Source of the DNA: Eledone cirrhosa
Lineage: Eukaryota
Assembly (NCBI GenBank): GCA_964016885.1
Contig: OZ024740.1
Location: 152,768,001-152,832,000, forward strand
Reading direction: 5' to 3'
Length of the DNA: 64,000 nt
Part shown: positions 1,830 to 60,765 of the stretch, piece by piece
How positions within the stretch are numbered: the stretch's first letter is position 1
Layout of the letters: each line of letters begins with the position of its first letter
Notes under the pieces: model-generated
Database searches by the model: none
Seen by the model: only the letters and a program-made list of their open reading frames with translations
What the model was told of the DNA's origin: nothing
Made by a program: the position numbers and the translations under genes

Positions 1830-4800
1830 CTACGGGCGCATGACCAGAGTAGACCCTCTCACACGGGCCATTCGCGCCACATTCACCCACCTTTCAGAAA
1901 ATGTACTGGGGGGCAGCACTTCTCTCTCCACCCTCACCTTCCTTTCCAAGTGAAACTTGAAAAAGTTGATGAGGGATTGGCCGAAGAGAAAAGTGTCTGT
2001 CTTCAGTCCTTTCAACCTCGTCCACCATACAACCTCTTCCGCTACTGCTACTAGACAGAGGAAAATTGCCTGCCCTTCCTGGCCAAAGGAAAGCGGCGGG
2101 TCGATCTTCACTATGGACTCGGCCGATAGCCGGATCCGTTCTACACGCGACAACAGCTGTTCGACATAACTCCATAAGTCAGTAATGCACGGACACTGGA
2201 CGAGTGTGTGCAGAACGGTTTCGTCGCTCTGCGCGCATTTTGGGCAGATCCGTCTGACAGCACTTCCGTGCCTGTAGAGTTTATCTCGAACCGGCAGTGC
2301 CCCCCGGTAGCACTGCCAAGCGAGGGATTTTTGGAAATTATCCATCGTCCCCGGCTCGAAAGTCCTCCGGAACAGACTGGTTAGTTCGACTTCGTCGACT
2401 CCCAGAACCTCTCCGAGTGCGTCGTTGCACTTGCCCACCACTAATCCTCTATAGAACTCGAGAGTGGAAGTTCCACTGACCGCATTGCCCGCTTGGTAGA
2501 GGGCAGTGAGTGCCTGGCAACATTCCAGATGCCAGTCACCCAGCGTCGGTCTCTTCTTGACCCAGGACTGCAGCTCAGTCAAAGAGACGAGCTGCGGAAA
2601 GGCCTGTCTGACAAACGGCGACCACACTTGTTGACCGTTTAGGTAGAATATCTGGAGATGCCGCAGCCTCAGCGCGTGTCTGCGCATCATTATCTACGCT
2701 ATGCCCAGCTCTCCACGAAGAGGGTGCTGGCAGCAGAATTTGAAGAGGAGCCGCTCCAAGATGGTGAGGCGCGAACGGGGGCAAGTAACGACAGTCAGAC
2801 GGTAGTATATGACGGACGCGATGTACGCGTTCGCCACCTCCGCTCGACCTTTCAGTGATAGCTTCCTCCCAGTCCATTTCTGGGTGAGACTGGCTACCCT
2901 GCCCGTCACCTCGTCCCAATTTTTATCCACCTGGAGGTCTGGCCCGAACCAAACCCCGAGCAACTTTACCGGTCCGTCCGTCCAGCGCCTAACGACGTTG
3001 TTGGACGACATGGACTTGCCTCTCCAGGTGCCGAGTTGCAAGCCCACCGACTTTTCCGGGTTAAGTTTTGCTCCCACCAACCTTTCATATTCCTCCAATA
3101 AGTTGCCGACCACCTCGATTTCTGAGGTGTCCGACACCATCACGGTGATGTCGTCCGCATAAGCCGACACAGCCTTTCCACGTCCCGGTTCGAGCAGGAT
3201 GCCCTGCAACAGCTCCAGCTTCCGCAGTAAAGGCTCGAGAGTCAACACGTACAGAAGGGAGGAGAGAGGGCACCCTTGACGGACCGATCGGGAGACCTGA
3301 AACGGTTCCGAGAGGTAGCCATTAATTTTGACCACCGAGCAGGTGCCCTGTGCATTGCAGCGATCCAGCTTCTGAAGACGAGGCCGAAGCCAGTCACCTT
3401 GAGAACAGCTTCCAGGTACCGATGGTCGACCCTATCGAATGCATTCGATTGATCTAAATTGATCAGAGCCCCACCGAAGCTAGGTTTACACCCTACCCTC
3501 TCTATGATGTATCGCATGAGGTGGAGATTGTCGTGTATGGACCTGATTGGGATTGCGCAAGTTTGCGCCTCCCCAACCAAATCCCCGACGACAAGCGCCA
3601 ACCTTTCGCTAACACACTGGCCAAAATCTTAAACTCTGTGTTGAGCAGAGTTATGGGCCTGAAATTGTCTAATGTGTCCCTCTTGTTCTCATCTTTCCTT
3701 ATCAGCGTCACTACGCCTCGGCTCACAGAACTGGGAATACTCCCGTTCTGCTGCCAGTTGCAGTAGAGCGCTTCGGTGAGATTGGAGAACAAGTCTGGCA
3801 TATTTACGTAAAGCTCGTAGGGCAGATCTTCCAAACCGGGTGATTTGCGCCTCATGCAGCCGACAAGGGCATCCTAAATCTCGGCTGAAGTAATCGGCCT
3901 TTCGCAGCGCCCAGCGTCGGCCGTCGAGAGTTGCGGCAAGCCATCGAGGTAGAGACTGAAGTCCGCCACCGTCTCTGACCCGCCACTTCCCCCGAACAAC
4001 CGAGCAAAATGTTGGCGAAAGGCCTCACACATCCGCTTGGAATCGCTCAGCTCGTGTCCGTCTCGGTCCGTCAAAGACCGAATCGTGGTTTTATTACCAC
4101 GCTGCGCCTCTGCCACGCGGGCCCATCGAACAGCTTTGGTTCCCTCGTTTCTCAGAGCACGCGCCTTAGCGCTGACAATGCAACCTTCGTGTTTCGCATT
4201 GAAGAAATGGTCTAATGCCATTCTCGCCGCTAGCACGTTATTTGCAATGCCACTACCAATAGCCTCGTCTAACCTATCTACCAACTTGCTAAACTATCGA
4301 CATTACTCTAATCTCTCTGAATAGGCGACCGTTTTAAAACGTGGACAGCTTACACTATTTCTGTCTATTTTCCTAATGAATATCCCGTCTATATACGATC
4401 TAGATGACCCTATGCGGTTAGTCCAGGTCCACACTGGCGCATTAGGGAAATCTAGTCGGTACCTGTCAGACAGTTGGAACTGGCTGATCAGGTTCTTGAG
4501 GCTTTTGCACCCCCCGCTCCTATCGGATACTCCCACACAGTCCCAGCGTGCGTCTAAGATGCTGTTCCAGTCCCCCGCTAACAGTAAAGGGCGAGACGTA
4601 CCCAGAAAGGCTTCCAGGCGTCTAAAGAAGTCCGGCCGTCCTGCCCCAGTAGGGGCGTAGACGGCCGCCAGTCTAAAGGCATGACCTTCGTTATTGTTCA
4701 CGTCCAGGACCACCAACTTCCCGTCCGGGTCCCGGAAGATCGACCTTGCCTCGAGATCCAGGCCTTTCCTAAACTGCACTGCCACCCCGCCTCCCATTCC

Positions 4801-8743: not shown

Positions 8744-8746
<3 letters not shown>

Positions 8747-9282
8747 TTAAATAAAAAGTCAAATGATTAAAATTTAGCTTCGTTTATTACTGCTATATAT
8801 ATTTCAGTGACAGCCATCTTTGGCTGTGACCTCTTCAGGCAGTTTGAATTAGTATGGTATAGACAAGTACATATGTTGTTGAGGTATATAATATTGTCAA
8901 TACTCTGATATGCCCAGTTCCTGGTTGGGTTGTTATTTCACTGAGGAACTGGATACAACTCATATGATTCCAGTTCCTCAGTGAAATAACAACCCAACCA
9001 GGAACTGGGCATATCAGAGTATTGACAATGTTATACACCTCAACAACATATGTACTTGTCTATACCACACTAATTCAAACTGCTTGAAGAGGTCACAGCC
9101 AAAGATGGCTGTCACTGAAATATATATAGCAGTAATAAACGAAGCTAAATTTTAATCATTTCACTTTTTATTTAACTTTATTTTACACTACTCCGGAGTA
9201 ACCAAACCAACCTGCGCACTTCGTCGAGTGCTCCAGCCTGCATACTGAGGTGTTGGTATACAACCAACATAAACTCAAAATC
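8744..9282 (+). mobile_element. Fold-back PLE pLTR remnant: arms 8744-8953 and 8969-9178 plus ~100 nt tail, in (TA)n
   Basis: 210-bp near-perfect inverted arms containing a hammerhead motif; (TA)n on both sides. Confidence 0.85.
8790..8842 (-). ncRNA. Type I hammerhead ribozyme motif
   Basis: CTGC-CTGAAGA-[GGTCACAGCCA AAGA TGGCTGTCACT]-GAAA-TATATA-TA-GCAG; stem I CTGC/GCAG. The mirror copy at ~9080-9132 reads TTGAAGA. Confidence 0.8.
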
Positions 9283-10021: not shown

Positions 10022-10068
<47 letters not shown>

Positions 10069-10074
<6 letters not shown>

Positions 10075-10393
10075 GACAGGAGGGAAGAAAAAATGGCTTC
10101 ACTTGTGCTTTCAACAAATTTATTTTCTTCACAAAATCCCAAAATTATTTTTTTCCGGATTAGAAAAAATATTTTTCTTAAAAAAAATTATTTTATAAAT
10201 TAATTTATAAAATTTTACAACTTAATTTATAAAATAATTTTTTTTAAGAAAAAAATTTTTTCTAATCCGGAAAAAAATTCTTTTGGGATTTTGTGAAGAA
10301 AATAAATTTGTTGAAAGCACAAGTGAAGCCATTTTTTCTTCCCCCCTGTCTTAATATACCTAACTGTACCAAGGATTACACACATTTTTCCAA
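10069..10393 (+). repeat. Fold-back element (arms ~10069-10203 and 10223-10356) plus ~37 nt tail, in (TA)n
   Basis: ttaagacaggagggaagaaaaaatggcttc... is mirrored by ...gaagccattttttcttcccccctgtcttaa; no ribozyme core seen. Confidence 0.8.
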
Positions 10394-10412: not shown

Positions 10413-12847
10413 ATAAATTAATAAAATAATGAATAAACAAAGAAACAGTTCCTTATATTAAAAAATTCATCATTTTACGATCGTTTCTAGGATATATATG
10501 TTAGTGTTGGTATGCATATCCTATAGATCTATGTAAAATTTTTATAAACTATCAGAGGGAATATACATACCTACACATATATATGCTGTCTTCAGAAATA
10601 ATGATATTTGTTTATTGAAAAAAACCAACAATAGGTCTGTTTGGGAACAGGTTTTGAATTGACCAATAGAAAGATAGGGAATATACATACCTACACATAT
10701 ATATGCTGTCTTCAGAAATAATGATATTTGTTTATTGAAAAAAACCAACAATAGGTCTGTTTGGGAACAGGTTTTGAATTGACCAATAGAAAGATAGTGA
10801 AGGTCAAGATGGTAAAATAGTAGTAAAAGAACCTCAATTTATGGGTAGAGGAAGGTAGATTTCAGTTTTGGATGGAAAGAATATTATGAATGAAAGATTA
10901 TTTTAGGGATGAAAATAGGTCATATGCTGACCTCAGAAATAATTATATTTGTTCATTGAATAAAACCAACAAAGATTTAATATAGTAGGTCTGTTTGGAA
11001 ACAGGTTTTGAATTGACCAATAGAAAGGTAATAATTGGCCAAATGGTAAAATAGTAGTAATGGAAGTTTATTTTAGGGGTAGAAGAAGGCAGATTTCAGT
11101 TTTGAATGGAAGGAGTATGAACAATGAAAAGGTTATTTTAGGGGTGAAAATAGGTCAGGTCAGTAAAAGGTACACGAAAAGTTGCTGTTATAAAAGAATA
11201 ATGCCAATGTAAATATCTAAGGAGACTAAAATGTTACGATAAAAGTGTTAGTGAAAAAAATATATATGGAATTTACATCTATGAAAAGAATATAAATTAA
11301 TTTAATTGATGGGTATATTTATATTGATAAAATTATATTAATGCATATAGATATGATAAATAAGAGTTAGATGTAATTGAAGAGTGCTGTTAAAGACGAG
11401 GGGAAATTAAAAAAATATAAAAAGAATATATATATATATATATATAATAATTGGGGGGGGGGTTAAATTTATTAGTGAGAAATAATAAATATATAGAGAT
11501 TTCAAGGAATATAGAATCATAACCTGAAATTAAAACATTATATATGTTTACTTAATGGTATCAATTTTAGGAAAAGATAGTTGTAAGAAGGAAATTAAAA
11601 TTATGTAGTTCATCAGTAGTAGAATATTAATTATAGGTTAACTAAATTGAAAAAAGTTTTTATATTAATTTCTAAAATGTATATTAATTAGGTTTATAAT
11701 ATTTAAAGGTTTTTCTCGGTTTATGATTACACGATATTATTAATTCCTGTCACTTATTTAATAGGATATCCTAAATTTAACTCCCCCCCCCCCCAATAAT
11801 TATATATATATATATATATATATATTCTTTTATATTTTTTTAATTTCCCCTCGTCTTTAACAGCACTCTTCAATTACATCTAACTCTTATGTATCATATC
11901 TATATGCATTAATATAATTTTATCAATATAAATATACCCATCAATTAAATTAATTTATATTCTTTTCATAGATGTAAATTCCATATATATTTTTTTCACT
12001 AACACTTTTATCGTAAAATTTTAGTCTCCTTAGATATTTACATTGGCATTATTCTTTTATAACAGCAACTTTTCGTGTACCTTTTACTGACCTGACCTAT
12101 TTTCACCCCTAAAATAACCTTTTCATTGTTCATACTCCTTCCATTCAAAACTGAAATCTGCCTTCTTCTACCCCTAAAATAAACTTCCATTACTACTATT
12201 TTACCATTTGGCCAATTATTACCTTTCTATTGGTCAATTCAAAACCTGTTTCCAAACAGACCTACTATATTAAATCTTTGTTGGTTTTATTCAATGAACA
12301 AATATAATTATTTCTGAGGTCAGCATATGACCTATTTTCATCCCTAAAATAATCTTTCATTCATAATATTCTTTCCATCCAAAACTGAAATCTACCTTCC
12401 TCTACCCATAAATTGAGGTTCTTTTACTACTATTTTACCATCTTGACCTTCACTATCTTTCTATTGGTCAATTCAAAACCTGTTCCCAAATAGACCTATT
12501 GTATTAAATCTTTGTTGGTTTTTTTTCAATAAACAAATATCATTATTTCTGAAGACAGCATATATATGTGTAGGTATGTATATTCCCTCTGATAGTTTGT
12601 AAACATTTTACATAGATCTATAGGATAGGCATACCAACACTAACATATATATCCTAGAAACGATCGTAAAATGAAGAATTTTTTAATATAAGGAACTGTT
12701 TCTTTGTTTATTCATTATTTTATTAATTTATCTTGACTCTGTTTTCTGAAAAATATTTTTGAATACATCTTCTCTTTTCATGATATTCGGATTACATTGA
12801 GTTCTTCATACGGATTGGACACTACCGTACATTTTGGTAGATTTATC

Positions 12848-13901: not shown

Positions 13902-14015
13902 ACCAAAACGACAGTTAGCTGATATGCGAGCGGCTGAATATCGGGCACTGATAGGGTTAACCAGAAAAGTGACATGTGTTGAAGTAGCATGTGGGTTAGT
14001 TGATATTGAAAAGAG
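13902..14015 (+). CDS. Neuropeptide precursor exon A (PXXXamide/PTH-like): (R)PKR-QLADMRAAEYRALIGLTRKVTCVEVACGLVDIEK(S)
   Basis: Acceptor ctccttcctacag|, donor AG|gtatag, 114 nt, phase 2/2; KR followed by Gln; two Cys; clear paralogue of exon B. Confidence 0.88.
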
Positions 14016-14802: not shown

Positions 14803-14910
14803 AATAATAATTACTTCAACATTTGGTATACGGCCAGCAATTTAAAGTGGAAAGTCGATTAAATCGACCCCAGTGCATTACTGGTGCTTTATTTTATCGA
14901 CCCTGAAATG
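14803..14910 (-). mobile_element. SINE family A, 3' part
   Basis: gtcgattaaatcgaccccagtgcattactggtgctttattttatcgaccc. Confidence 0.75.
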
Positions 14911-14943
<33 letters not shown>

Positions 14944-15150
14944 CGTGCATACCTATATATATGAACAGTATGTCAGCTGGCCATTGGAGGAGCAACATCA
15001 AAACATACCGAGACATACCACACGTTGAACAAAAGATTACACTGTCTTATTTGGTCGTATCTATTACATAACAGATACCCCTGAAATACATATAACATTT
15101 AATCAATAAAATGATGTAAGATTCAAGCACACAAACTTCTTCATTATCGG

Positions 15151-15550
15151 TGGATTGGCAGTATCGGTAGAGGGTCGGACGCCATGCTTTGCAGCATAGA
15201 GTTACGTCCCTTTACGATCTGAGTTCAAATCCCGCCGAGGTTGACTTTGCCTTTCATCCTTACGGGGTCGATAAAATAAAGCACCAGTAATGCACTGGGG
15301 TCGATTTAATCGACTTTTCCCTCCCCTCAAATTGTTAAAGAAAATTATGTTATGCTATAATATTTTTAAGTGAATATGTTTGCAACAGCTTTGGTTTTGA
15401 AAGAGTTAAAATAGTATATAAATGTTGTTAACATTTAACTACTAACAGTAAGATCTTTTTTTCTCTCTTAACTGTTACTTTTCATCAACTATTGTTTCGG
15501 ATGTTTTAGTGGTAAAAAAAAACGTGTGCCCAAAGTAGAAACAATTATTA
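15151..15550 (+). mobile_element. tRNA-derived SINE family A (Deu/Nin-like central domain) containing a ~190 bp captured host intron/exon piece
   Basis: tggcagtatcggta (box-A-like), gagttcaaatcc (box B), gcctttcatccttacggggtcgataaaataaagcaccag; the SINE tail resumes at 15526. Confidence 0.85.
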
Positions 15551-15555
15551 TATAA
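15510..15555 (+). CDS. Possible alternative terminal exon C': (S)GKKKRVPKVETIII*
   Basis: Duplicate of the exon C acceptor (cggatgttttag|) and first 16 nt, in frame, finished by SINE tail sequence ending in TAA. Confidence 0.45.
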
Positions 15556-16054
15556 ACATATTTAAATGTGAGTGTCCATAAATGTATGCCTCTTTCTTCC
15601 TCATCTCATAATAAATGCATATTTCAGTTTGCTTTGACCATTTGTTATCTTACCTACCACTGTTCAGCTTCATTGAAAGAAAATCCCACACCCTACAACG
15701 CAACGTACCTATCATAGTTACCATTACCCATGTTTATTTTATATATATGGTCTGTTGTGGTCCACCTGGTTCCTTACCACACTTGCTTCGTTATATATAT
15801 ATATATATTATATATATATAGTAGTGTCCTACATTTTACCCTGTTGTTCATATAATCTAATCATATTTGTTATATATTTAATGAAGAGATAAATGTTATG
15901 TTTACTTGTGTGGTTTCATTATTATGTTGTTGTTTTCATACATATTGTTACTTTCACTTTCAATTTACTATATTGTTTTGTTTCTCAATGTGTCGAATTG
16001 TTCTGTTACTTAAACGTTGATGTCCCACTTGTGTGTTGTTTTACCTGTTTACAG

Positions 16055-16174
16055 ATCAAAGCGCCAGACAGGCGACATAAAAACAGCCGAATACCAAGCC
16101 TGGTTGGCACTTGGTGGCATTGTACCACCGGGTTGTGTCGAGGTTGCCTGTGGGGTAGTCGATGTACACGCCAG
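16055..16174 (+). CDS. Neuropeptide precursor exon B (PXXXamide/PTH-like): (R)SKR-QTGDIKTAEYQAWLALGGIVPPGCVEVACGVVDVHA(S)
   Basis: Acceptor ttttacctgtttacag|, donor AG|gtacag, 120 nt, phase 2/2; shares KRQxxDxxxAEYxA and CVEVACGxVD with exon A. Confidence 0.88.
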
Positions 16175-16286
16175 GTACAGTAAAATAAAAGCATAAAGCA
16201 AAATTCTTGATGACTTAGATATGAAAATTTCCATTGTTTGGAAAATAAATCAAACATTGCTCTCTCTATCTCTTCTCTCTTTGCTG

Positions 16287-16318
<32 letters not shown>

Positions 16319-16321
<3 letters not shown>

Positions 16322-16692
16322 TAATAAAAGGAATTCCAACTTTGTCTGATTTACTCGTTTTATTTACAATCCTTTAAAATTATAATGATATAATGAAATA
16401 GTATGGTAGAATATTAAATGTTAAGTGTTAATTGGACAAGTACTTTCATGCTTTCGCAATCTTCAGGTTCATATTCTGTGGTGATAGTCAAGTTTGCAAT
16501 TTTCAACTGAGTTGAAAATTGCGAAAACATGAAAGTACTTGTTCAATTAACACTTAACATTTAATATTCTACCATACTATTTCATTATATCATTATAATT
16601 TTAAAGGATTGTAAATAAAACGAGTAAATCAGTCAAAGTTGTAATTCCTTTTATTAATATAATCTTCTATACACAATCATACACACCCGTGT
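16319..16692 (+). mobile_element. Fold-back PLE pLTR remnant (arms ~16319-16460 and 16517-16659) plus tail
   Basis: Inverted arms; on - strand 16434-16470 reads GAAC-CTGAAGA-TTGC GAAA GCAT-GAAA-GTAC-TT-GTCC (GTTC in the other arm). Confidence 0.8.
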
Positions 16693-17981: not shown

Positions 17982-18015
<34 letters not shown>

Positions 18016-18019
<4 letters not shown>

Positions 18020-18632
18020 TAAATATCTTTAAGTCGTTTGGAAGCCTCGACAATGCAAATGGGTAAATCTCCGGGTAACAAGATCCGGTGGTGGAGAGAG
18101 AGATGTAAGTGGGTGTACGTTGAGATGCGTGGCGTGTATAAGACGTGTAGAGGAATGAAGGAAAGAGTATAAAGGATAAAATTAAAATAACAACACGAGA
18201 GTTACCTTGGGAGGGATTTAATTGTCCCTATATATTTCGGATTCACATCCATCAACTGGGTTTCTGATATTCAAAACAACAAACAGCGGAGGACGCGTTT
18301 CGCACCTTTCCGACAGACAACCTTTCCCCCACCCCGGAAAAAAACCCCAGTTGATGGATGTGAATCCGAAATATATAGGGACAATTAAATCTCTCCCAAG
18401 GTAACTCTCGTGTTGTTATTTTAATTTTATCCTTTATACTCTTTCCTTCATTCCTCTACACATCTAATACACGCCACGCATCTCAACGTACACCCACTTA
18501 CATCTCTCTCTCCACCACCGGATCCTGTTACCCGGAGATTTACCCATTTGCATTGTCGAGGCTTCCAAACGACTTAAAGATATTTACCTATTATTCCACA
18601 ATGCTTCAGGCAAACTTCAATACTCTCTTATG
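18016..18632 (+). mobile_element. Fold-back element (arms 18016-18263 and 18342-18590) plus 42 nt tail, in (TA)n
   Basis: ~248 bp near-perfect inverted arms; hammerhead-like motif with a variant core at 18345-18380. Confidence 0.85.
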
Positions 18633-20391: not shown

Positions 20392-20401
<10 letters not shown>

Positions 20402-21093
20402 TAAAAAAATAATGAATAAAACAATGAAACAGTTCCTTATATTAAACAAAAAAAGTTCATTATTTAACGATCGTTTCTGGGATATATATGTGTTAGAATT
20501 GGCATGTATATTTAACAGATCTATGTACAAAATTATACAAAATTATACAAACTATCAAAATTAAATATACATACCAACTCATATATATGCCCTCTTCAGA
20601 AATAATTTCTGAAGACGGCATATATATGAGTTGGTATGTATATTTAATTTTGATAGTTTATATAATTTTGTATAATTTTGTATAATTTTGTATAATTTTG
20701 TATAAATTAAATATACATACCAACTCATATATATGCCGTCTTCAGAAATAATTTCTGAAGACGGCATATATATGAGTTGGTATGTATATTTAATTTTGAT
20801 AGTTTGTATAATTTTGTATAATTTTGTACATAGATCTGTTAAATATACATGCCAATTCTAACACATATATATCCCAGAAACGATCGTTAAATAATGAACT
20901 TTTTTTGTTTAATATAAGGAACTGTTTCATTGTTTTATTCATTATTTTTTTAATATTTTATCTTGACTCTGTATTCCGTTTATCGTTCACCGAAAGTGAT
21001 TTTTCATTGCATCTCTTCTTTCCATGATATCCGGATTACATTGAGTTCTTCATACGGATTGGACACTACCGTAAACTCTTGGTAGATTTATCT

Positions 21094-22975: not shown

Positions 22976-24730
22976 ATACAGATCTTTCATCCATCCATTC
23001 TTAAATTAAATTTCCCATTCTACTTCAGCGTTAAACGGACATCCTCCGACCAGAGGATAGCCGAATTAAAAGCCCTTCTTGCCATGAGCAGAGTGGTTGG
23101 TCATGGTCAGATAGACGTAGATGCAATGTAGGTATTCGAACTTTTCTGTGTCTTCAGCGCTCCACATGTAGTAGTCTTCCTGTTCGTCACGAAGCCGTAC
23201 AGTGTCCGTCCGTTGTCACACTGCGTCGTCATCACACAATGTATTTTATTGCGTCACGGTACAATTTGTTGAATACGTCAGGATGTCTTGTTTTCTATTC
23301 TACGTCAAACTTTGTAGTTGATGATCTTCACGTCACGCCAAGACTGTTTCTGTACGTCATGTTCAAACCGTTTCTTCTACATACGTTACAACATAGTGTT
23401 GCACATTCTGTATCAGGTTATGTCATTTATTATTTTACTGTTCTGTTCTGTTTTCACTATGTTTATTCCTCCTCAAACACCGCAGTTACGTCTCGTTCAG
23501 TCGTTCTTTCTACGTCAAACTGTGCCGTTTAATTTTATTCCATCGCAGATCAAATCGTTTTTTTTTCTTTTGTTATTTTTTATGTCATGCCGTTCATTAT
23601 GTTTCTTCAACAATACCTAATGGAGCGATCCTTCGTAAGTGGTAGACGAAATGTAAGCAAACGTATCGATATATTCCGTTGTTCTCTACTCCTTCATCGA
23701 AAAGTATCTATCAATAATTTCCTGTCATATTTTCTTTAATCATAATTTTAGTTTTAAACATTTTCTTTTACTAATAAATAAAATCCCTGCAGATACTTGA
23801 AAACTAATTTTTTTCATGTCCACGCATGTTGTATTTCCGTTTCTTTAAGCATGTGAGATTTCCTTTCCTTTTACTAATAAAGAACTCAGAAAATTATTGT
23901 ATCAGATGCTTCTTGACTGCACTACGAATAATGACGGTATGTATCGATTCCTTTAACATTTCGTCTACTGTTTACAAAGACTCTACCATAAACTGTGGCA
24001 CAGTCTACTTCACTCTATAATGACCAGTTATTGTTTTTAACGCAACGATATCGGGTCCTTTATTCTATGTCACGTCAGATCATTCCTTCCATGTTCAATT
24101 GTTCATGTTCAATTATTCATTGACTCTACGTTGCCTTATATTGTTGGTATTTTATGTTGTTCGGTTGCACAATTTGACATATATTAATATTACTATGTTA
24201 TATAGTCATTTTTATCTCATGTCACATCAATTTCTTTCTTTCTTCACCACTAAATACTAATCCCTACTTCGCGTCCTGAAAAAAAAACAAAAAACAAAGG
24301 TTACAGCTCACACCTACTGATGCTAGGTGACCCTCCGAGGTTTCATCTCATAAGAGGTTTCCCAGGTGTTTTAATGATAAGAAACATAATCATATCAAAA
24401 ACACAACACAATGGGGTTAGAGAATGATATTATGATTGTGAGTCCAACACTCTAACCACGAGGCCACGAGCCTTCATGCTTCTATATTTGCAGTTTTATG
24501 GAACGGCCAGCACGTGGAAGTCCATTTGCCCACAATACAGAGAGGTGGGGAAGGCGAGAGAGATGGAGGCGATGACAATGGGAGTTCAGCTCTTCCGTGT
24601 TCGAACACATTGCACCTGTCATGTGGATCATTTAATTACTTAATAGTTCGTGTCGACTCTTACTGTATTAGGGGGAGTTCTACAACATTAAGCCAATATG
24701 TCTATTCTAAAATGTCATCCAGCTATAGTG

Positions 24731-26333: not shown

Positions 26334-26977
<644 letters not shown>

Positions 26978-31809: not shown

Positions 31810-31968
31810 GTCGGACATGCTTCATGGCACAGAGTTAAGATCCTTTACGTTCTGAGTTCAAATCCCGGCGAGGTTAGCTTTGCCTTTCATCCTTACGGGG
31901 TCGATAAAATAAAGCACCAGTAATGCACTGGGGTCGATTTAATCGACTTTTCCCTCCCCTCAAATTGT
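31810..31968 (+). mobile_element. SINE family A immediately upstream of exon C
   Basis: Near identical to 15208-15335. Confidence 0.85.
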
Positions 31969-32157
31969 TAAAGAAAATTATGTTATGCTATAATATTTTT
32001 AAGTGAATATTCTTTTTAAAAAAATGTTTGCAACAGCTTTGGTTTTGAAAGAGTTAAAATAGTATATAAATGTTGTTAACATTTAACTACTAACAGTAAG
32101 ATCTTTTTTTCTCTCTTAACTGTTACTTTTCATCAACTATTGTTTCGGATGTTTTAG

Positions 32158-32263
32158 TGGTAAGAAAAAACGTAATGACATATCAAGTGATGATATCAGA
32201 CGTTCAATTCTGGCCCAAAGACTGATACAATTTGCAGCAGAGAGACTTGCAAAGACGGAGTAA
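32158..32263 (+). CDS. Neuropeptide precursor last coding exon C: (S)GKKKRNDISSDDIRRSILAQRLIQFAAERLAKTE*
   Basis: Acceptor gatgttttag|; the first T completes AG-T (Ser), followed by an amidation Gly and KKKR; stop ends at 32263; strong donor G|gtaaga at 32275/32276. Confidence 0.88.
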
Positions 32264-32308
32264 TCTATAGAAATGGTAAGATATTTTTACCTCTCTCCAC
32301 TTGACTTC

Positions 32309-32366
<58 letters not shown>

Positions 32367-32423
32367 ATATATATATATATGAAATTATATATATATATAT
32401 ATATATATATTTATAATAAATAA

Positions 32424-34800: not shown

Positions 34801-34875
34801 TTCTAACACAAAGTTGCTTCCCCTATATAATGAAAATACCGAAAGTAATATCACATTATTACCCGAGGGTCGGTG

Positions 34876-35273
34876 GATTGGCAGTATCAGTAGAGGGTCG
34901 GACGCCATGCTTTGACACATAGAGTTACGGCCCTTGCCATTCTGAGTTCAAATCCCGCCGAGGTTAACTTTACCTTTCATCCTTACGGGGTCGATAAAAT
35001 AAAGTACCAGTAATGTACTGGGTAATTGCTGGCCTTGTGCCAAAAGTAGAAACAATTATTACCTTATTTATCTGATGAGATCTATATATCAAATAATTGC
35101 TTCTACTTTTGGCACAAGACTAGCAATTACCCAGTGCATTACTGGTACTTTATTTTATCGACCCCGTAAGGATGAAAGGCAAAATTAGCCTCAGCAGGAT
35201 TTGAACTCAGAACGTAAAGGGCCATAGCTCTATTCTGCAAAGCATGGTGTCTGAAGCTCTACTGATACTGCCA
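34876..35273. mobile_element. Tail-to-tail inverted pair of SINE family A (34876-35060 +, 35093-35273 -)
   Basis: Two full copies in opposite orientation, ~30 bp apart. Confidence 0.85.
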
Positions 35274-40395: not shown

Positions 40396-40840
40396 CCCCA
40401 GCACTTGACTAATACATTTTTATCGACTTCAAATGGATGAAAGTAAAGTTGACCTCGGTGGGATTTGAACTCAAAGAGCAGAGATCCAAAATGAATACCG
40501 CAAAGTTTTCTATCCGACGTTCTGACGACTCACCAATTCGCCGCCGCTTACTGCATATATAATCCCCTAAATCTAGATCTAGATCAATTTTAACGAGCTA
40601 AGTTTTAAAAAACAATGTTTTACCCGCTGAAAGCATCAAGCTTCTGAAAGTGCTGCATTTGGATTGACAGTATCGGTAGAGAGTCGGACGCCATGCTTTC
40701 CAGCATAGTTACGTCCCTTTACGATCTGAGTTCAAATCCCGCCGAGGTTGACTTTGCCTTTCATCCTTACGGGGTCGATAAAATAAAGTACCAGTAATGC
40801 ACTGGGTTATTGCTGGCCTTGTGCCTAAAGTAGAAGCAAA
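40396..40840. mobile_element. Head-to-head SINE family A pair (40396-40546 -, 40661-40840 +)
   Basis: Same diagnostic core in opposite orientations. Confidence 0.75.
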
Positions 40841-41419
40841 TATATCATGTTCTATAGCTGAGAATATTTAGCAAAAAGATCTTTATTACACCAAAGTCAT
40901 CTTTACTTGTTTCTGTCGATTGATCGATGTGCCTTTAACTCCACGTGGAGTCGTAGTTGCACAGTTGTGAAGTGTGGTGTGTCTTTGGCATTTAAATCCG
41001 GCAGAGATCATTCATTTTCACGTCTGAACACAGCAAATTTCTTCAAGAGAATGAGCGAGAGGAAGCGTGTGGGTGAGCGTAAGGGAAGAGAATGGCATAT
41101 AGAGAAAGAATCGATCCGAGTTCTGGACTGGTACTTTATTTATCGGTCTTGAACTGCACAGAGAATCGGAACAAATTCCACAAAGCATTCTATCCGACGT
41201 CCAAACAACTCAGCCAATTTGTCGTCTTTTACATGTTTACTGTAATATTAATGTAATATTTACTGTAATATTAATGCATTCTATATAGTAACTGAAATAA
41301 TTCTCTAGACATAAAAGAACTTATTCTTATCTTAACAACGTTGGGGTAAATCGTTGACCATTAACAAACAATATAACTGGGGTATAGAAGAAATTCTCCA
41401 AGAAATATGTACCTCCGTT

Positions 41420-52054: not shown

Positions 52055-55000
52055 CCTACATACCCCTCCCACACGCCCCTGATGACGATTCACCAGACGA
52101 AGCTACTTCTCCATCCCCAAGTGAAGATGAAGGGGAGCCTTGGAAATCAAAAAAACAAAAAAGAGACACCGCAAATCCACAAAAACAACAATCACCAACA
52201 CGAACACACAACACAAACACCACCACAATCACCTAAATGGAGATTGAACAACCCGATCTCCAGGAAACGAAAAGGTAAGTGCATCTTTTCGTCCTTTTTG
52301 CCAACTCTTCTCCAACAACATGGCTGACTTACGAGTTGAAAGCCTCAAAAATCTAATCGGCCAATTCCAACTGGCCGATAGGTATCGACTAGATTTCCCG
52401 ACTGCACCACAGTGGACGTGGGCAAACCGCAGCGGGACATCTAGATCGTATTTAGATAGGTTTTTCATTAGAGAGAAGGACAAGAAGATGTTAAGCTGTC
52501 CACAAATGCACATGGTTGCCTATTCAGATCACAAACTAGTCGTCTGCATAGTCAACCGTGATAGAATACATAGACAAGGACCCGGATGCTGGAAGCTGAA
52601 CGTGTCGTTGCCGGCACGTAAAGCCTACAGTGAACGGATAAGTAGATTAGTTAAGCAAGAGTTGACGGGAGCCATCGTCAACAATAGATGGTGGTACTCT
52701 CTCAAGAGAGCAATTAGAGTAGAATCGATAGGGCTTAGAAGAGAATTAGCTTTAGAGAAAAAAAAATCAGAAACAGAACTAGTAGCCAAGGTAGAAGAGG
52801 CGCTTAGGAGTGGCAACGCAGCTAGAGTGCTAGGATCGAGAACGGCACTGGACCAGTTCTTCGACGCGAAACACGAAGGCTGCGTAGTCAGAAGTAAATC
52901 ACGTGCTCTAGGAAACGAGGGAGCAAAAGCTGTTAGCTGGGCCCGAGTGGCGGAGCGAAAATGTGCAACAAGTCCACGATTCGGTCTTTGAAAGACCAAA
53001 ACGGACGCGTGCTACTTGACCCCAGAGAGATGTGCGCGGCCTTTCAGCGGCACTTTGCGCGACTGTTTGAGCAGAACGACGGTGCACCGAACGGGGCAAT
53101 GGATTTTGGTTCATACCTCGACGGCCTGTCGCATCTCTCGAGCATGGACGCCGCGTTCTGCGAAAGAACGATCACAGCCACTGAGATACGGGACGCTCTG
53201 GGCCGCTGCGGGAAACGCAAATCCCCCGGTCTAGATGGTCTATCCTATGAGTTTTACATAGGCATGCCGGACTTGTTCTCTGGCGTCCCCGAAGCCGTCT
53301 ACTGCAATTGGCAGCAGAACGGGAGAATTCCCAGTTCTGCAGGCAAGGGCGTAGTAACGCTGATCAGGCAAGACGAGAACAAGGAGGACGAAATTAACAA
53401 CTTTAGGCCCATAACTCTGCTCAACACAGTTAAAGATTTTGGCCAAGGTGCTAGCAACGAGGCTGGTGCTTGTCGTCGAAAACCTGGTAGGGGAAGCGCA
53501 AACGTGTGCAATCCCGACCAGGTCCATACACAACAACCTCCACCTCATGCGATACATCATAGAGAGAGTGGGGTGTAAACGCGGCTTCAGTGGGGCTCTG
53601 ATCAATTTAGATCAGTCTAAGGCATTCGATAGGCATCGATACTTGGAAGCGGTTCTCAAGACGGCCGGTTTCGGTCCCGTTTTCAGGGGCTGGATCAAGG
53701 CGATGTACACCAGCATCTGCTCAAGGGTCAAGGTGAACGGCTACCTATCGGAGCCGTTTTCAATCACGCGTTTCATTCGATAGGGATGCCCTCTCTCCTC
53801 CATGCTGTACGTAATGACTCTAGAGCCACTACTGCGGAAGTTGGAGTTTTTGCAGGGCATCCCTTCTATCTGGGACTGCGAAAATCCGCGTCGGCATATG
53901 ACGACGACGTGACGGTAGTGGTGTCGAAAACCTCGGAAAGCGAGGTAATCGGCAACCTACTACAGGAATATTAAAGGTTCACAGGAGCAAAACTGAACCC
54001 GGGCAAGTCTGTCGGTTTGCAACTCGGAACGTGGAGAGGCAAACCGATGCCGTCCGACAGCATCGTCGGACGCTGGACGGAAGGACCAGTGAAATTGCTT
54101 GGGGTCTGGTTCGGTCCAGACCTCCAGGTGGAGAAAAACTGGAATGAGGTCATGGCCAAGGTATTTGCGCTCACCCAGAAGTGGACAGAGTGCAAACTAT
54201 CTTTAAAAGGTCGAGCGGAGGGGGCGAACACTTTCATAGCGCCCGTCATCTACTGCCGCTTGACTGTCGTGCCTTGTCCCCGTGAATACCTCACCAAGAT
54301 GGAACGCATGCTCTTCCAGTTCCTGTGGAAGAAGCAGGCTGGTGAGGAGATCGGTCTGCTATCACTCCAACGGAGGGCTGGGCATGCCGTGGCTAATGAT
54401 GCGCAAACATGCGCTGAGGCTACGGCATCTCCAGGTATTCCTCACCGACCAAACGGTGTGGGCACCGTTTGTGAGATAGGCCTTCCCACAACTTGTCTCA
54501 CTGACGGAGCTGCAGTCCTGGGTCAAGCGGAAACCGAAGAAAATGGGCGCCTGGCACATTGAATGCGCTCAGGCACTCACAGTCCTCTGTCAAGCGGGCA
54601 CAGCAATCAGTGAAGACTCCACTTCGACATTCTATAGAGGGTTAGTACTTTACAAGTGCGACGACGTGCTCGTGGAGACTCTAGGCGTCGAAGACGATGA
54701 GCTCACCAGTCTGTTTGGTAGGACTTTCCGCCCGGGACCTATGGAGAACTTCCAGAGGTCCCTGGCCTGGCAGTGCTACCGAGGAGTTCTACCCGTTCGA
54801 GATAAGATCTACAGGCACGGACGCCTCGGCAGGGATCCTTCCAAGAGGGCGTGTCCAAGATGCGAGCAGGCCATTGAAACCGTCTTGCAGCACGCAATTG
54901 TACACTGCCCGGGCGTAACTGACCTGTGGAACTATGCAGAACAACTGCTGTCGCGTATGGGACAAATCCAGTTGACTGCCGAGTCCATAGTAAGGATCAA

Positions 55001-55503
55001 ACTGCTAGCCTCTTTCAAAAGCGAAAGAGAGGTGGTTTTCCTCTATACAGTGGCTATGGTGAAAGAGGTTATGTGGTGGACGAGATTGAGAGGACTGAGG
55101 ACAGATGCCTTTCTCTCCGGTCAACAATTGATTCCCTTCTTTAAGTATCACTTTAGAAGGAAAATCAGAGTGGAGAGAGAGGCACTGCACCCCAGTAAAT
55201 TTACTGAAAAGTGGGTGACTGTGGCAAAAATAGCCCGAGTGATTGGACCTTCTCTGTGTATAAACCTTTAGGTTGAAGAAGAGAGCAAAAGGAAGAAAGG
55301 ATCACTTGCACAACACGCTCCTGAAGTTGAGGGTTGTTCTATCGACGGGGTATTAAATAACACATTTGTGGCGCCTCCCCCTATTGGGGATTTCGATTGT
55401 TATAATTGTTTGTTTCATATTTGTACACGATTGTATGTAAAATCCCTGGCATGTGTCTTTGTTTTGTCTCCTTTTCTTGTGTGCCCTGTGGAAAATAAAG
55501 AAA
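52055..55503 (+). mobile_element. Tx1-like LINE copy 2, 5'-truncated, deleted in ORF1 and the APE domain
   Basis: ORFs 52320-52991, 52961-53578, 53439-53783, 54017-54562 and 54543-55271 are homologous to copy 1; ends aataaagaaa. Confidence 0.92.
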
Positions 55504-55963
55504 TATATCTATCTACCGATCTATCTGTTTGTCTATCTGACTGTCTGTCTTTCTACTTTAGAAAGTGTATATGGATGAATCAACCAATAAAAAGCCAACA
55601 CCTTAAATGAATTATTTTTGAAATCAGTAATGTGTTCCAATGTCCAACATCTAATATCCAAAGTCCATTGTAATGTGTGGAGTATACGATATTCTTAATT
55701 TATCTATCAGGAGCTAAAGAAAAAGAAAATCCAAAATGACCCATATTCTCAGTAGAGCTCCTAACTAAATTTAAGTGTTAAGAAAGCCACAATACTCTTT
55801 TTAGTTCACTGTTCCTGTTCCAGTGTCGAGGTGTGTGTGTGTGTGTGTGTGTGTAGGATGTCCCCTAAAAATGTACACACTTTGATTACCTGTACAGGCA
55901 ATATTTATTAGAATGGTGATGAAGTATGTATACATTTTTGAGAGACACCCTGTATATATATAT

Positions 55964-56015
<52 letters not shown>

Positions 56016-56131
56016 CGAGAGAGAGAGAGAGAGATAGAGAGGGAGAGGGGGTGAGAGAGAGAAATATATATATATATATAATATATGATTAGTACCTGCT
56101 ATATGACAGCTACAACTTCGATTCATACCTA

Positions 56132-56190
<59 letters not shown>

Positions 56191-56333
56191 TGTTATTGGA
56201 TGAGGTTTCAGCTTTCATTGATATTTTCCCTGAGGTTATTTGTATTTATGGCCAAGACATTAAATTCTGATTTCCCTAGGATGTATTCATTTGAATCGTT
56301 TGGACAAATGATTGCATTGCTTTCCAACTTTGA

Positions 56334-56403
56334 TTAGAAATTCTTGATCTCAACCTTCACACCATAGCTGTTTGTTCTCGACCTTCTATGATAGCCATGA
56401 CAC
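56334..56403 (-). CDS. Candidate terminal coding exon of an unidentified minus-strand gene: (x)CHGYHRRSRTNSYGVKVEIKNF*
   Basis: Acceptor aatttag| and an open, protein-like frame in non-repetitive sequence; no homologue recognised. Confidence 0.25.
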
Positions 56404-56461
56404 CTAAATTACTGACAAGTCACATGCAATACATATATTTCTTTTATTTAATCTGATTGTA

Positions 56462-57158
56462 ATAATTGTTTCTACTTTTGGCACAAGGCCAGCAATTATC
56501 TCAGTGCATTACTGGTACTTTATTTTATCGACCCCGTAAGGATGAAAGGCAAAGTTAACTTCGGCGGGATTTGAACTCAGAACGTAAAAAAACATAACTC
56601 TATGCTGCAAAGCATGGCGTCTGGCGCTGATGCTGATGTTGATGGTGACGGTGGTGGTGATGGTAATGGTGATGGTGATGGTGGTGTAATAATAATGATG
56701 GTGATGACAATGGTGATGATGACAATAATGATGACAATAGTGATGGTGATAATGATGATGATGACAAACATGATGGTGATAATGGTGATAATGATGGTGA
56801 TGGTGACAATAATAATGGTGATGATGGTGATAATGATGATGGTGGTGATGGTTATCATAATGACAATAATGAGAATTATGGTGGTGATAATGATGGCGAT
56901 GTTGATGGTGATGATGATGATGACAATTATGATGGTGATGGTGATGGTGATGGTGATCATGACAGTGATGATAATAATTGTTTCTACTTTTGGCACAAGG
57001 CCAGCAATCACCCAGTACATTACTGGTACTTTATTTTATCGACCCCGTAAGGATGAAAGGCAAAGTGAACCTCGGCGGGATTTGAACTCAGACCGTAAAG
57101 GGACGTAACTATGTTGGAAAGCATGACGTCCAACTCTCCACCGATACTGCCAATCCAC
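56462..57158 (-). mobile_element. Two SINE family A copies (56462-56626, 56973-57158) separated by a (GAT/GGT/AAT)n tract
   Basis: Diagnostic SINE core present twice; trinucleotide low-complexity sequence at 56627-56975. Confidence 0.85.
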
Positions 57159-57809
57159 CGTGATGATAATAATGGGGACGATGACAATAATTATGTTGAT
57201 GGTGATGATGATGTTACTGCTAAAGATCATGACAATAGTTATAGCGATGATGATAACGGTGATAACCCTTAGTGTATACAAAAACCTTATGTTAAATATA
57301 TTACAAAATTCTGGTTTCAATTCTTCACCGTACTCATTATAGCTTGACTTCCTTCAAAGAAACAATCTTGATGATTCCATAATAAAAAATCTTTAAAACA
57401 TTTTAAGATTAGTGAAGCATTAAAAAATGTTCACCTGACGCCGTCTATGGCGGCATTTTTCTGTTTTAACAGCTTTCTTGCGTTGAATTCTCATTGTTCT
57501 ATGAATTCTAATACACTCGAAACAAGAAAATAGTGTTTATATGTTTTATCACAGCTATATTAGCTTTCTGTTTTAGATGAATACCACGGCCTGAGGTTCG
57601 TTGGCCTATTCTGTCTCACTTCCTTTTTTCTCTTCTTTTGTTCTTCCTCTCTCTACCCTATTCTTCTCTTCTTCTTTCGTTCTTTCTCTCTCTCTCCCCC
57701 CCACTCTTCCCCTTTCTCCTTCCCACCGTTCTTGCTTGTCATCTCCGCAGCGCCAGGGTTTTTGTTGTCCTTTCTAGCGGGGACATGGTGCCTAGAGGAC
57801 GCCTTTTAC

Positions 57810-58167
<358 letters not shown>

Positions 58168-58574
58168 CTCTCTCGCTCTCTCTCTCTGGTATGTCTGTCT
58201 GTCTGTGGAAGGAGAGTTGCTGTTCTGTTTCGAAAAACCACAAACGATTCACTTGGACCCGGAGGGCAGCTTGGTGGTCCTGAACGTGAATGGTAGTGAA
58301 GGTGGGGCTTTCACACTGGTGGCCGTATATGCCTCGACTGGGACATCGCGACCAGAGTTCTTCAAGCGTCTGGAGCCATTCCTGGGAACGTCTCGCTCCT
58401 TAGTGTTAGTGGGGACTATGTAGGAGCTTGTGATAATAGAGGGGGGTGTAATAGCCTAAAAAATCGCATCAGCCAATTCCAACTGACTGATAGATATCGA
58501 CTAGACTTCCCAAGTGTACCACTGTGGACATGGAGCAACCGCACTGGGTCCTCTAGATCGTATTTAGATAGATT

Positions 58575-60765
58575 TGTAGCACGTGCCCTGGTATCAGGGT
58601 GGATTACCCGCTTTGGAGTACCAACTACAGTCACCACAGACCGTGGTAGACAATTCGAGTCCCATCTCTTCTCTGACCTCACAAAGATAATTGGAGCTCA
58701 ACGGATTCGGACCACAGCCTATCATCCTGCTTCAAATGGAATGGTGGAACGATTCCACCGCCAATTAAAGGCCGCTCTTCGCGCCTATCCAGACTCTCAA
58801 CATTGGAGCGAGTACCTTCCTATTGTGTTGTTAGGAATTCGGTCATCAATAAAGGAGGACCTGGAGTTCTCCCCGGCCGAATTACTTTACGGTGTTCCTC
58901 TAGCGTTGCCTGGGCAAATGCTTGCCCCTGTTGATCTTGCTTTCCAAGATCCGCTTTCCTACGTATCCCGTCTGCGTTCTTATTTTCAGGACTTGCCGCC
59001 GATGGATACGAGGAAACAAACTGTAAAACCTGCGGTCCCGAGGGATATTGCCTCGTGGACCCATGTGTTCGTAAGGAACGATGCTGTGAGACCACCCCTC
59101 CCACAACCATACTCTGGACCCTACCGTGTGTGCACATACTGACAAACATTTCACTGTAGACGTTAAGGGGTCCAGAGAGACAATTTCGGTGGATAGACTA
59201 AAAAGGGCACACAATGACGCTCATACACCCGAGCCACAAATACCCCAATCTTTCTCTCTTGTGCATACATCTGCTCCTTCTTCCCCACCTTCACCTACAT
59301 ACAAGACCACGACCCGTTCCGGTCGGAGAGTCCACTGGCCCAAAAAGTTCTGCCAAACTGTTTTCATGTGAACTGGCCACTGGAACCTTATTATTTTTTG
59401 TTGTTGTTCTTTTTATTTTTTTATTTATTGTATTACTATGTACCTCTCATTACCATTTCACTGGATGTATATATATGTTTTTCGTTTCTTCTTACAACGA
59501 ACATTTAAGAAGAAAAAAAAAGAAAAAAAATTGATATTTTTTTTTTTTTTACACATTTATACATGAACATTTACTTTCGCTGAATCTCAACTATTGCTTA
59601 TTCTTTCCGCCAAGCTTTTTTCATCGTTCACAAAAAAAGTTGAACTCGCCATATTTGTTATACCAAGTGAAGCCTTTCTTTCTGTTTCATCATATTATCA
59701 CGTTCACACACGAGTTTTTCAAAATGGCTGCCAACAACCTTGTTTCGGCACGTGTGGGCAGCACACATCTCGACTCACTGAGATACCACACGCATTAGAA
59801 ATATTTTTTTTCCAACTTGACTTTAACCTTGTTTCGGCACGTGTGGGCAGCACACATCTCGACTCACTGAGATACCACACGCCATAGATATGGTTTTTTG
59901 CCAAGGATTCTCCAGCCTTAAGCTATATTCTCCTATTTGCCGGTTTAAAAATTTACCACGTAAATTTGCCATTGAAAACTGCGCATTTATTCAGAATGCT
60001 TATTTCTTTGGTCGCTGGCCTCTTGACCCCTCAAGGTCAACGCATTCTCAACATCGACCATCAACTTTGGCTGTTATTTCTAGTACTTTGCGCAACTCAT
60101 TTTTTTTCTGGGAAAATTTTTACTGTGAATTTAAACAGCATCGAATACGCTCACTCCGCGAGACAACAACATCAACAACAACAACACAGCTTCATCAACA
60201 ACCAAAACCAGCAGAACAAGCCAGAGAATTTATTTTTGCAGCACTCTTCCTGTGAGAAAATCCCACCGAATTTCACATTGTACCACAGTCTAGAGACCAC
60301 CTGCATACATTCTCTGGAGGACACACTTTCTTTCTTACTGTCATGTGATTGCACACCTGTGAACTGTATTTGGAACATTTGAACTTTAACCTCTTCTTTT
60401 ACTTTGATTACATTGTATCTTTGAGTGATGGATGGATAGTTCTCTGGCCAAGAGCGGTTGGCTACCTTGATATCTATCATTGATTTTTGCATGCATATAT
60501 TTTGCTGTTTTCCTTTTATTGCAAACACTATTTTTTTCGTAATCTTCATGCCTGTAACATGCTCGCCATCTTACTCCATACATGGTTCATTCGATTTTTA
60601 TATTTTAAAAATCTGGCGGGGGATAATGTAGCAAGAGTTGTCTCCCTTGTTATGACAATCACATCACCGCTCTCTAGACAGGAAGTAGCTGGAGTTACTT
60701 CCCGTTGGGGTGGCAGAACCCTTTTTGTCACTTCCGTCCGGAGACCCTATAAAAGGGACAGGTCA
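58575..60765 (+). mobile_element. Gypsy LTR retrotransposon fragment: integrase, 3' UTR, PPT and start of the 3' LTR
   Basis: [67 protein letters not shown]; PPT ctggcggggg at 60613-60622, LTR start TGTAGCA at 60627, TATAAAA at 60748. Confidence 0.88.
59736..59882 (+). repeat. 58-bp perfect direct repeat (59736-59793 and 59825-59882) in the Gypsy 3' UTR
   Basis: aaccttgtttcggcacgtgtgggcagcacacatctcgactcactgagataccacacgc, twice. Confidence 0.9.

Follow-up and report, generated by a model that had tools for sequence, protein, structure and literature searches.

A recent copy of a splice acceptor and amidation signal within a SINE of the predicted QSamide/PXXXamide gene of Eledone cirrhosa

Introduction

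Several described systems come close to the locus considered here, both in the plan of the gene and in the way in which part of it has been copied. In the oyster, the QSamide3 and PYKIamide precursors have a GRRKR end in common, as reported in the accessible part of the source (PMC8398477). The octopod gene analysed here would follow the same plan, with alternative QSamide and PXXXamide sequences and a single end made of a glycine and basic residues. In contrast to the oyster, for which that text describes two more, separate QSamide genes, it contains two QSamide exons and one PXXXamide exon (PMC8398477). For the oyster gene, the same part of the paper mentions no copy of the last exon inside the gene, and a literature search found no publication on the present locus, at which an octopod QSamide/PXXXamide gene can now be mapped, its three alternative peptides being arranged as in the oyster.

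As to the copying itself, hybrid repair in human cells, in which end joining completes synthesis-dependent strand annealing (SDSA), gives a class of products (Fig. 2E in the accessible text of PMC5386867) that shares four features with this locus: one end is homology-primed, a non-homologous flank is copied, the other end shows low homology and the donor is unchanged. Unlike those products, the present copy would be a natural germ-line event between two dispersed SINEs of one gene, in whose copied flank lie a splice acceptor and the signal for amidation. Alu-Alu gene conversion, in the part of PMC8230782 drawn on here, is likewise a process by which a SINE acquires the sequence of another subfamily (here, a short form acquiring a long-form 3' part); it is scored there as a change of element type, whereas 191 unique flank bases are included at this locus. 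Finally, the class 2 templated sequence insertions, as presented in the accessible part of PMC5110952, are also patches of a few hundred bases copied with a micro-deletion at a junction, in contrast to which the template is here local (16.6 kb away) and one end is homology-directed. The kind of event is known, and this is a neat instance of it, showing clearly, in nature, how a SINE-rich genome copies splice sites and short coding signals within a gene.

The window, i.e., the whole stretch of 64,000 nucleotides that was analysed (contig OZ024740.1, positions 152,768,001 to 152,832,000), contains all peptide exons of this gene. The reading that we favour, with moderate confidence, is that recent double-strand-break repair made a one-way copy of the start of the last exon into a SINE, that the copied acceptor is predicted to be usable, that it is likely unselected and little used, and that the peptides are likely still amidated via the original last exon.

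Gene structure and the shared last exon

By its similarity to Octopus proteins, the predicted gene is the octopod QSamide/PXXXamide (iPTH-type) precursor gene. When the O. sinensis model P0001 was searched against the 3.0-Gb genome, five matches were obtained among nine candidates, all at one locus, which correspond to a signal-peptide exon and to exons A, B, D, and C. The signal-peptide exon lies 3.5 kb before the window (contig coordinates 152764411-152764499) and ends in phase 2; it shares 84% identity with the O. sinensis N-terminal sequence and is the sole match genome-wide in this search. The peptide exons, all on the forward strand, match proteins of Octopus sinensis, O. bimaculoides, and O. 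vulgaris. Exon A (13902-14015, 114 nt, phase 2 at both ends), which ends with DIEK followed by AG, is 79-81% identical to O. sinensis models; exon B (16055-16174, 120 nt) encodes a peptide that is identical in the Octopus models P0003 and P0004. Both are of the QSamide type: compared by eye with the QSamide alignment in the accessible part of PMC8398477, they have the KR-Q start, two cysteines with CG, and a serine before the glycine. Exon D (23029-23127, 99 nt) is of the PXXXamide/iPTH type, its SDQRIAEL corresponding to the SD..R.AEL motif when aligned by eye with the PXXXamide sequences of the same source (PMC8398477). Like the insect iPTH/PXXXamide peptides described in the available text of PMC7224569, exon D carries the SD motif and stops ahead of the glycine and basic residues; unlike them, it has no proline at position -4, ending in V-D-A-I, as is also true of the O. 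sinensis and O. bimaculoides models. Since this proline is called only mildly conserved in that text, exon D is taken as a divergent PXXXamide member (PMC7224569). No Pfam match above the cut-off was obtained for any of the six proteins searched, and Rfam returned a weak microsatellite match only.

Exon C (32158-32275, forward strand) supplies to the joined peptide exon the last base of the peptide, the glycine and K-K-K-R (GKKKR), followed by a C-terminal peptide and a TAA at 32261-32263. A glycine followed by basic residues is an amidation signal. Exons A, B, and D have lengths that are multiples of three and all end in phase 2, so each is able to join exon C. Public Octopus models indeed include signal+A+C, signal+A+D+C, signal+B+C, signal+B+D+C, and signal+C, the latter being O. 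bimaculoides model P0006, where the signal exon is joined directly to C. That the last exon is shared is an old feature, as the oyster precursors also have one common end in the accessible text of PMC8398477, and as C follows A, B, or D in Octopus models. Two further observations can be added. A donor-like GTAAGA is found at position 32276, 12 nt past the stop of exon C, making an intron in the 3' UTR possible, the alternative being an end near the AATAAA at 32415. For O. vulgaris there is a second model, P0005, whose A-, B-, and D-like peptides differ in sequence and which lacks a signal exon; the exon cluster may have been duplicated in that species, as compared to the single cluster of the E. 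cirrhosa genome.

A copy of the start of exon C inside a SINE

A second version of the beginning of exon C is present between exons A and B. Positions 15245-15525 are the same as 31878-32173, the intact source found by sequence comparison, except for one substitution and one 15-nt deletion, and going by this comparison chance cannot yield a 281-base match with a single substitution. The copied tract, which is on the forward strand as is its source, is composed of 90 bases of the source SINE (15245-15334, from the 3' part of its long form, with a left switch point that is likely within 15245-15282), 175 bases of intron (15335-15509, with a polypyrimidine tract and AG, the last 134 nt being those of the source), and the first 16 bases of exon C (15510-15525), hereafter C'. 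Its non-SINE part has exactly two matches, out of two candidates, in the 3.0-Gb genome. The deletion of 15 nt follows position 15375, the non-SINE intron part measuring 175 nt in the copy versus 190 nt in the source, while the substitution, G>A at 15516, changes AAG to AAA in C' and just extends an A run. An earlier note on this DNA had proposed that 15208-15525 is a copy of 31841-32173 with about 180 nt of intron and AAG>AAA as the single change in the cassette. The duplication is real and the substitution is confirmed, but 15208-15244 only show SINE-to-SINE likeness (4 differences in 37 bases) and the 15-nt deletion and the 175-nt intron length have to be added. Similarly, its placement of the copy between exons A and B is right but left out exon D, the third peptide exon.

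The source SINE (31810-31967, forward strand, left end approximate) is a long-form element that is 3'-truncated and has no tail. The SINE that received the tract is of a different make. Its head, outside the copied tract (15149-15244, forward strand, defined by comparison with other SINE copies), is only 81% identical to the source SINE, and its tail (15526-15552, forward strand) is found 672 times exactly in the genome with the usual upstream hexamer, in full agreement with the proposal that the SINE tail resumes at 15526. Twelve of these 672 same-tail copies were retrieved and compared: all are of the short form, lacking the stretch behind CACTGGG that came in with the tract, and seven of them are 88-93% identical to the recipient head, the remaining five being lower or unmatched. 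At the right end of the tract, 14 nt are lost relative to short-form SINEs and one base is shared at the join. Taken together, a short-form SINE would have kept its head and tail, its middle being replaced by pieces of the source SINE, intron, and exon C. No target-site duplication of at least 7 bases flanks it, the longest words common to the two flanks being 5-6 nt.

As regards the SINE family in general, a short-form subfamily lacking about 30 internal bases dominates (e.g., 34870-35062, 40660-40843, and 56973-57160, in addition to the 12 fetched copies), and many of its members break just ahead of the tail. The recipient SINE adjoins the end of an older dispersed repeat (14968-15147; of its 176 candidates 40 were scored, giving 41 matches at 74-79% identity).

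Reality and age of the copy

The copy is real and young. It diverges from its source by 0.36% (upper 95% bound, 2.0%), and the source intron differs between E. cirrhosa and organism B (run X4) at 15 of 191 letters (7.9%, within a between-species range of 4-8%); the copy therefore dates from long after that split, and it may be an allele that is private or polymorphic. In the source intron of organism B, the indel segment has a 12-letter version, so that the longer state of the source is also present there, from which it follows that the 15-nt deletion arose in the copy.

Four of the 23 sequencing runs listed were compared over 14950-16250. In organism B, contig 23 (depth 13.3) covers 15599-15748 and 15845-16250, and another stretch, likewise at depth 13.3, lies at about 14953-15081. 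If both are parts of one contig, as inferred from their depth and from a length (840) that allows it, about 41 letters of organism B stand against 517 in the window, and organism B appears to be without the recipient SINE as well as without the copy. In run X1, which may come from the assembled animal itself, a contig covering 15307-15552 spans the right junction and extends 27 letters past it, below the 31-letter bar; it has the source form of the 15-nt indel, as expected of merged near-identical paths. The corresponding contig of run X2 follows the source locus. In both X1 and X2, a rise in depth at 15375 was considered as a sign of the deletion allele and rejected, as this rise ends before 15378, and comparisons of joints and loose read ends were swamped by SINE matches at this locus.

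These data also bear on the possibility that the copy is an assembly artefact, i.e., a chimera of two SINE loci. The window is rich in long palindromes and microsatellites, which would favour such an error. However, the tract is flanked, in register and with 14 nt missing, by a head and a tail that belong to a single subfamily, two changes are peculiar to the copy, and the short-read contig of X1 crosses the right junction, all of which make an artefact exceedingly improbable.

Origin of the copy

The copy likely originated by SINE-primed templated repair. Its left junction lies within SINE homology (15245-15282), 191 non-homologous unique bases were copied past the SINE, the right junction has one shared base, and the donor is unchanged. 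One end that lies in homology, unique flanking sequence that was copied, a second end that is close to blunt, and a source that was left intact together make up the structure of an SDSA-then-end-joining product, as defined in the accessible text of PMC5386867. The earlier proposal of ectopic conversion or template switching between SINE copies is borne out to the extent that the short-form head, and the tail that follows the 14-nt loss, support a one-way, SINE-primed copy; the tract nevertheless runs 191 bases beyond the element, and is not SINE-SINE gene conversion in the narrow sense.

The sequence of events could have been as follows. A double-strand break would have occurred in the recipient SINE, at a site perhaps made fragile by an inverted SINE located 240 bases upstream (long inverted repeats induce breaks in yeast, according to the accessible part of PMC3681665). 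The broken end would then have invaded the similar SINE 16.6 kb downstream via about 55-130 bases of SINE homology, and DNA synthesis would have continued for 206 bases past the end of homology, into the intron and exon C, before the new strand was released and end-joined to the SINE tail at one shared base, with 14 bases lost. This two-step order, with the SINE first and then the insert, is inferred; no allele with a plain recipient SINE was seen among the runs compared.

Retrotransposition offers other routes. A 3' transduction was ruled out because the captured DNA stands before the tail, the head is not that of the source, and the source has no tail, and an independent insertion of a solo tail at 15526 was ruled out because it needs a coincidence with the end of the tract. 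A third possibility is a double template jump at SINE insertion, with reverse transcription going from the tail to unspliced RNA of the gene at position +16 of exon C, back through the intron and source SINE, and then to the head of a short-form SINE RNA. The common orientation of all parts, with the SINE tail at the 3' end, is compatible with this, double jumps have been reported for a fungal LINE (in the accessible text of PMC2104539), and tails broken at the same point do exist: 177 exact cases with an altered upstream sequence were found, and of 30 examined (with a search pattern that selects for this break point), 21 have a SINE body within 54 bases and 9 have none within 1.5 kb. Conversely, two jumps and the presence of unspliced neuropeptide RNA in the germ line would be required, there is no clear target-site duplication (nothing over 6 bases), and none of the 30 altered tails shows the combination of head, foreign DNA, and tail seen at the recipient. 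A double template jump is rather unlikely. The same count of 0 out of 30 indicates that an event of this type is uncommon in that sample, yet of a known kind.

The inverted SINE itself (14803-14911, reverse strand, left end approximate) is of the long form and 5'-truncated. It contains 53 nt that form an exact complement to the tract as well as to the source SINE, its pairing partners being 15257-15317 in the copy and 31890-31950 in the source. Its shared 44-mer has 342 occurrences in the genome, and a one-letter variant has 303; by a naive estimate, two independent copies of the 44-mer would fall within 17 kb of each other with a probability of 0.004, which becomes about 0.02 when the spacing of the 97 other matches listed is used. 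The identity between the inverted SINE and the source SINE may be due to local conversion or to chance.

Splicing competence and use of the copy

By its sequence, C' could be competent for splicing. Its acceptor and the 134 bases before it are identical to those of exon C, and its frame reads GKKKRVPKVETIII, the recipient SINE tail contributing VPKVETIII before a TAA at 15553-15555 (forward strand), just as the earlier note had stated for the closure of the frame by SINE sequence. AATAAA is a poly(A) signal and GTGAGT a donor-like site, and both are found on the forward strand behind C': a GTGAGT at 15568-15573 would make C' a 58-nt internal exon with its stop 12 nt before the end, and an AATAAA at 15610-15615, with T-rich sequence behind, is a possible poly(A) signal for C'. 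Per 150 nt of this window, the chance of a GTGAGT is 0.06 and that of an AATAAA about 0.18, so that either could be fortuitous. Given the full-strength acceptor, located 1.5 kb from exon A (as compared to 18 kb for C), and the donor-like site and AATAAA close by, real use of C' is quite possible. Use is nonetheless likely to be low, since nothing selects for it and the mature peptide is unchanged: mature peptide A is identical whether it is completed by exon C or by C', with only the C-terminal tail and the 3' UTR being different.

Substitution counts give no sign of selection on the cassette in C'. Ten of the 48 possible substitutions are synonymous, so chance is enough to account for a synonymous G>A, and 28 of the 48 keep the glycine and two basic residues. 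The earlier note had seen meaning in the exact retention of the cassette, which carries no weight here as exon C starts with it and any tract reaching at least 10 bases into the exon brings it along. Nor do the data favour its suggestion of an early step in splitting one gene into two peptide units. There are three peptide exons and mature peptide A does not change, and splitting is unsupported because exons B and D would need a second promoter and signal exon, where the genome search shows a single signal exon.

Expression was approached through run X5, which has the same organism label but is of unrecorded type (88 million letters), and derives from a different sample, possibly one without the copy. 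This run behaves like RNA, the bin depths fitting one contig on 16053-16174 with empty flanking intron bins. Since the two letters that this contig has beyond exon B would place an AG-ending exon (signal or A) before B, and not the donor of C', C' is bypassed when exon B is used, at least for the X5 sample, which may lack the copy. Two other features of X5 were discarded. The gap at 15434-15521, which includes the start of C', is a contig hole and proves nothing. The depth over 15566-15653 (3.75 and 5.6, with one genome match) was considered as a 3' UTR and rejected, as read placement accepts matches as short as about 18 letters and a chance match of 20 letters gives the same figures. Protein searches, which returned models of O. 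sinensis, O. bimaculoides, and O. vulgaris only, gave none with a C'-like end; none of these models is from E. cirrhosa, and they are uninformative on the use of C'.

A function for C' as private last exon is possible from the sequence. According to this alternative, the junction 14015>15510 would provide peptide A with its own last exon, cleaved after the AATAAA at 15610, exons B and D would keep C, and the inverted SINE could bring the donor nearer. Besides the acceptor and its 134 upstream bases, identical to those of exon C, the in-frame GKKKR and stop, and the AATAAA with T-rich sequence behind, the predicted stem between the inverted SINE and the tract (about 59 pairs, z -8.7; duplex energy of -109 kcal/mol, as with the source SINE) is in line with this. 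However, any inverted SINE pair forms such a stem, the AATAAA has the above-mentioned chance frequency, selection left no sign, and the mature peptide is the same. The last-exon reading is unlikely. Pairing of the inverted SINE with the source SINE would loop out exons B and D, the copy now being the nearer partner; that the stem has a role in routing exon A is speculation. Quite unlikely is a scenario in which a working last exon for A was born in a single SINE-primed step, with A routed to the copy via the RNA stem, ending at the AATAAA at 15610, escaping competition from B and D, and gaining a new 3' UTR.

The opposite outcome is that C' acts as a trap, either as a 58-nt poison exon (15510-15567) or as a premature end after the signal exon or exon A, lowering B and D, and would be a rare allele that is mildly harmful or neutral. 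Nonsense-mediated decay follows a 50-nt rule, and the GTGAGT donor of the putative poison exon is 12 nt past the stop. A further argument for a trap is that the acceptor of C can take the signal exon, as in P0006 of O. bimaculoides. Splicing of exon B to an AG-ending exon in X5 argues against it, and a trap is very doubtful.

We thus retain the reading of a copy whose acceptor is predicted to work but which is likely spliced in at a low level. Should RNA reveal real use, the locus would offer an uncommon, dated instance of a neuropeptide processing exon that originated in a single step, and would allow the choice between a near and a far identical acceptor amid alternative exons to be studied in nature; if the single-step scenario for a working last exon were true, an exon of a peptide gene would have been born and used within one species.

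Other repeats of the window

Long near-perfect inverted repeats are found at 10413-12731, 8744-9178, 10067-10358, 16317-16661, 18015-18591, 20393-20961, and 26508-26858. Their arms are 146-675 nt long and 96-100% complementary, and several are related to each other; they are either foldback-like elements or assembly palindromes. Finally, a diverged long repeat is present in several copies (73-80% identity) in 1845-4732 and 52339-62891, and is likely of LINE type as judged by its GC content and length.
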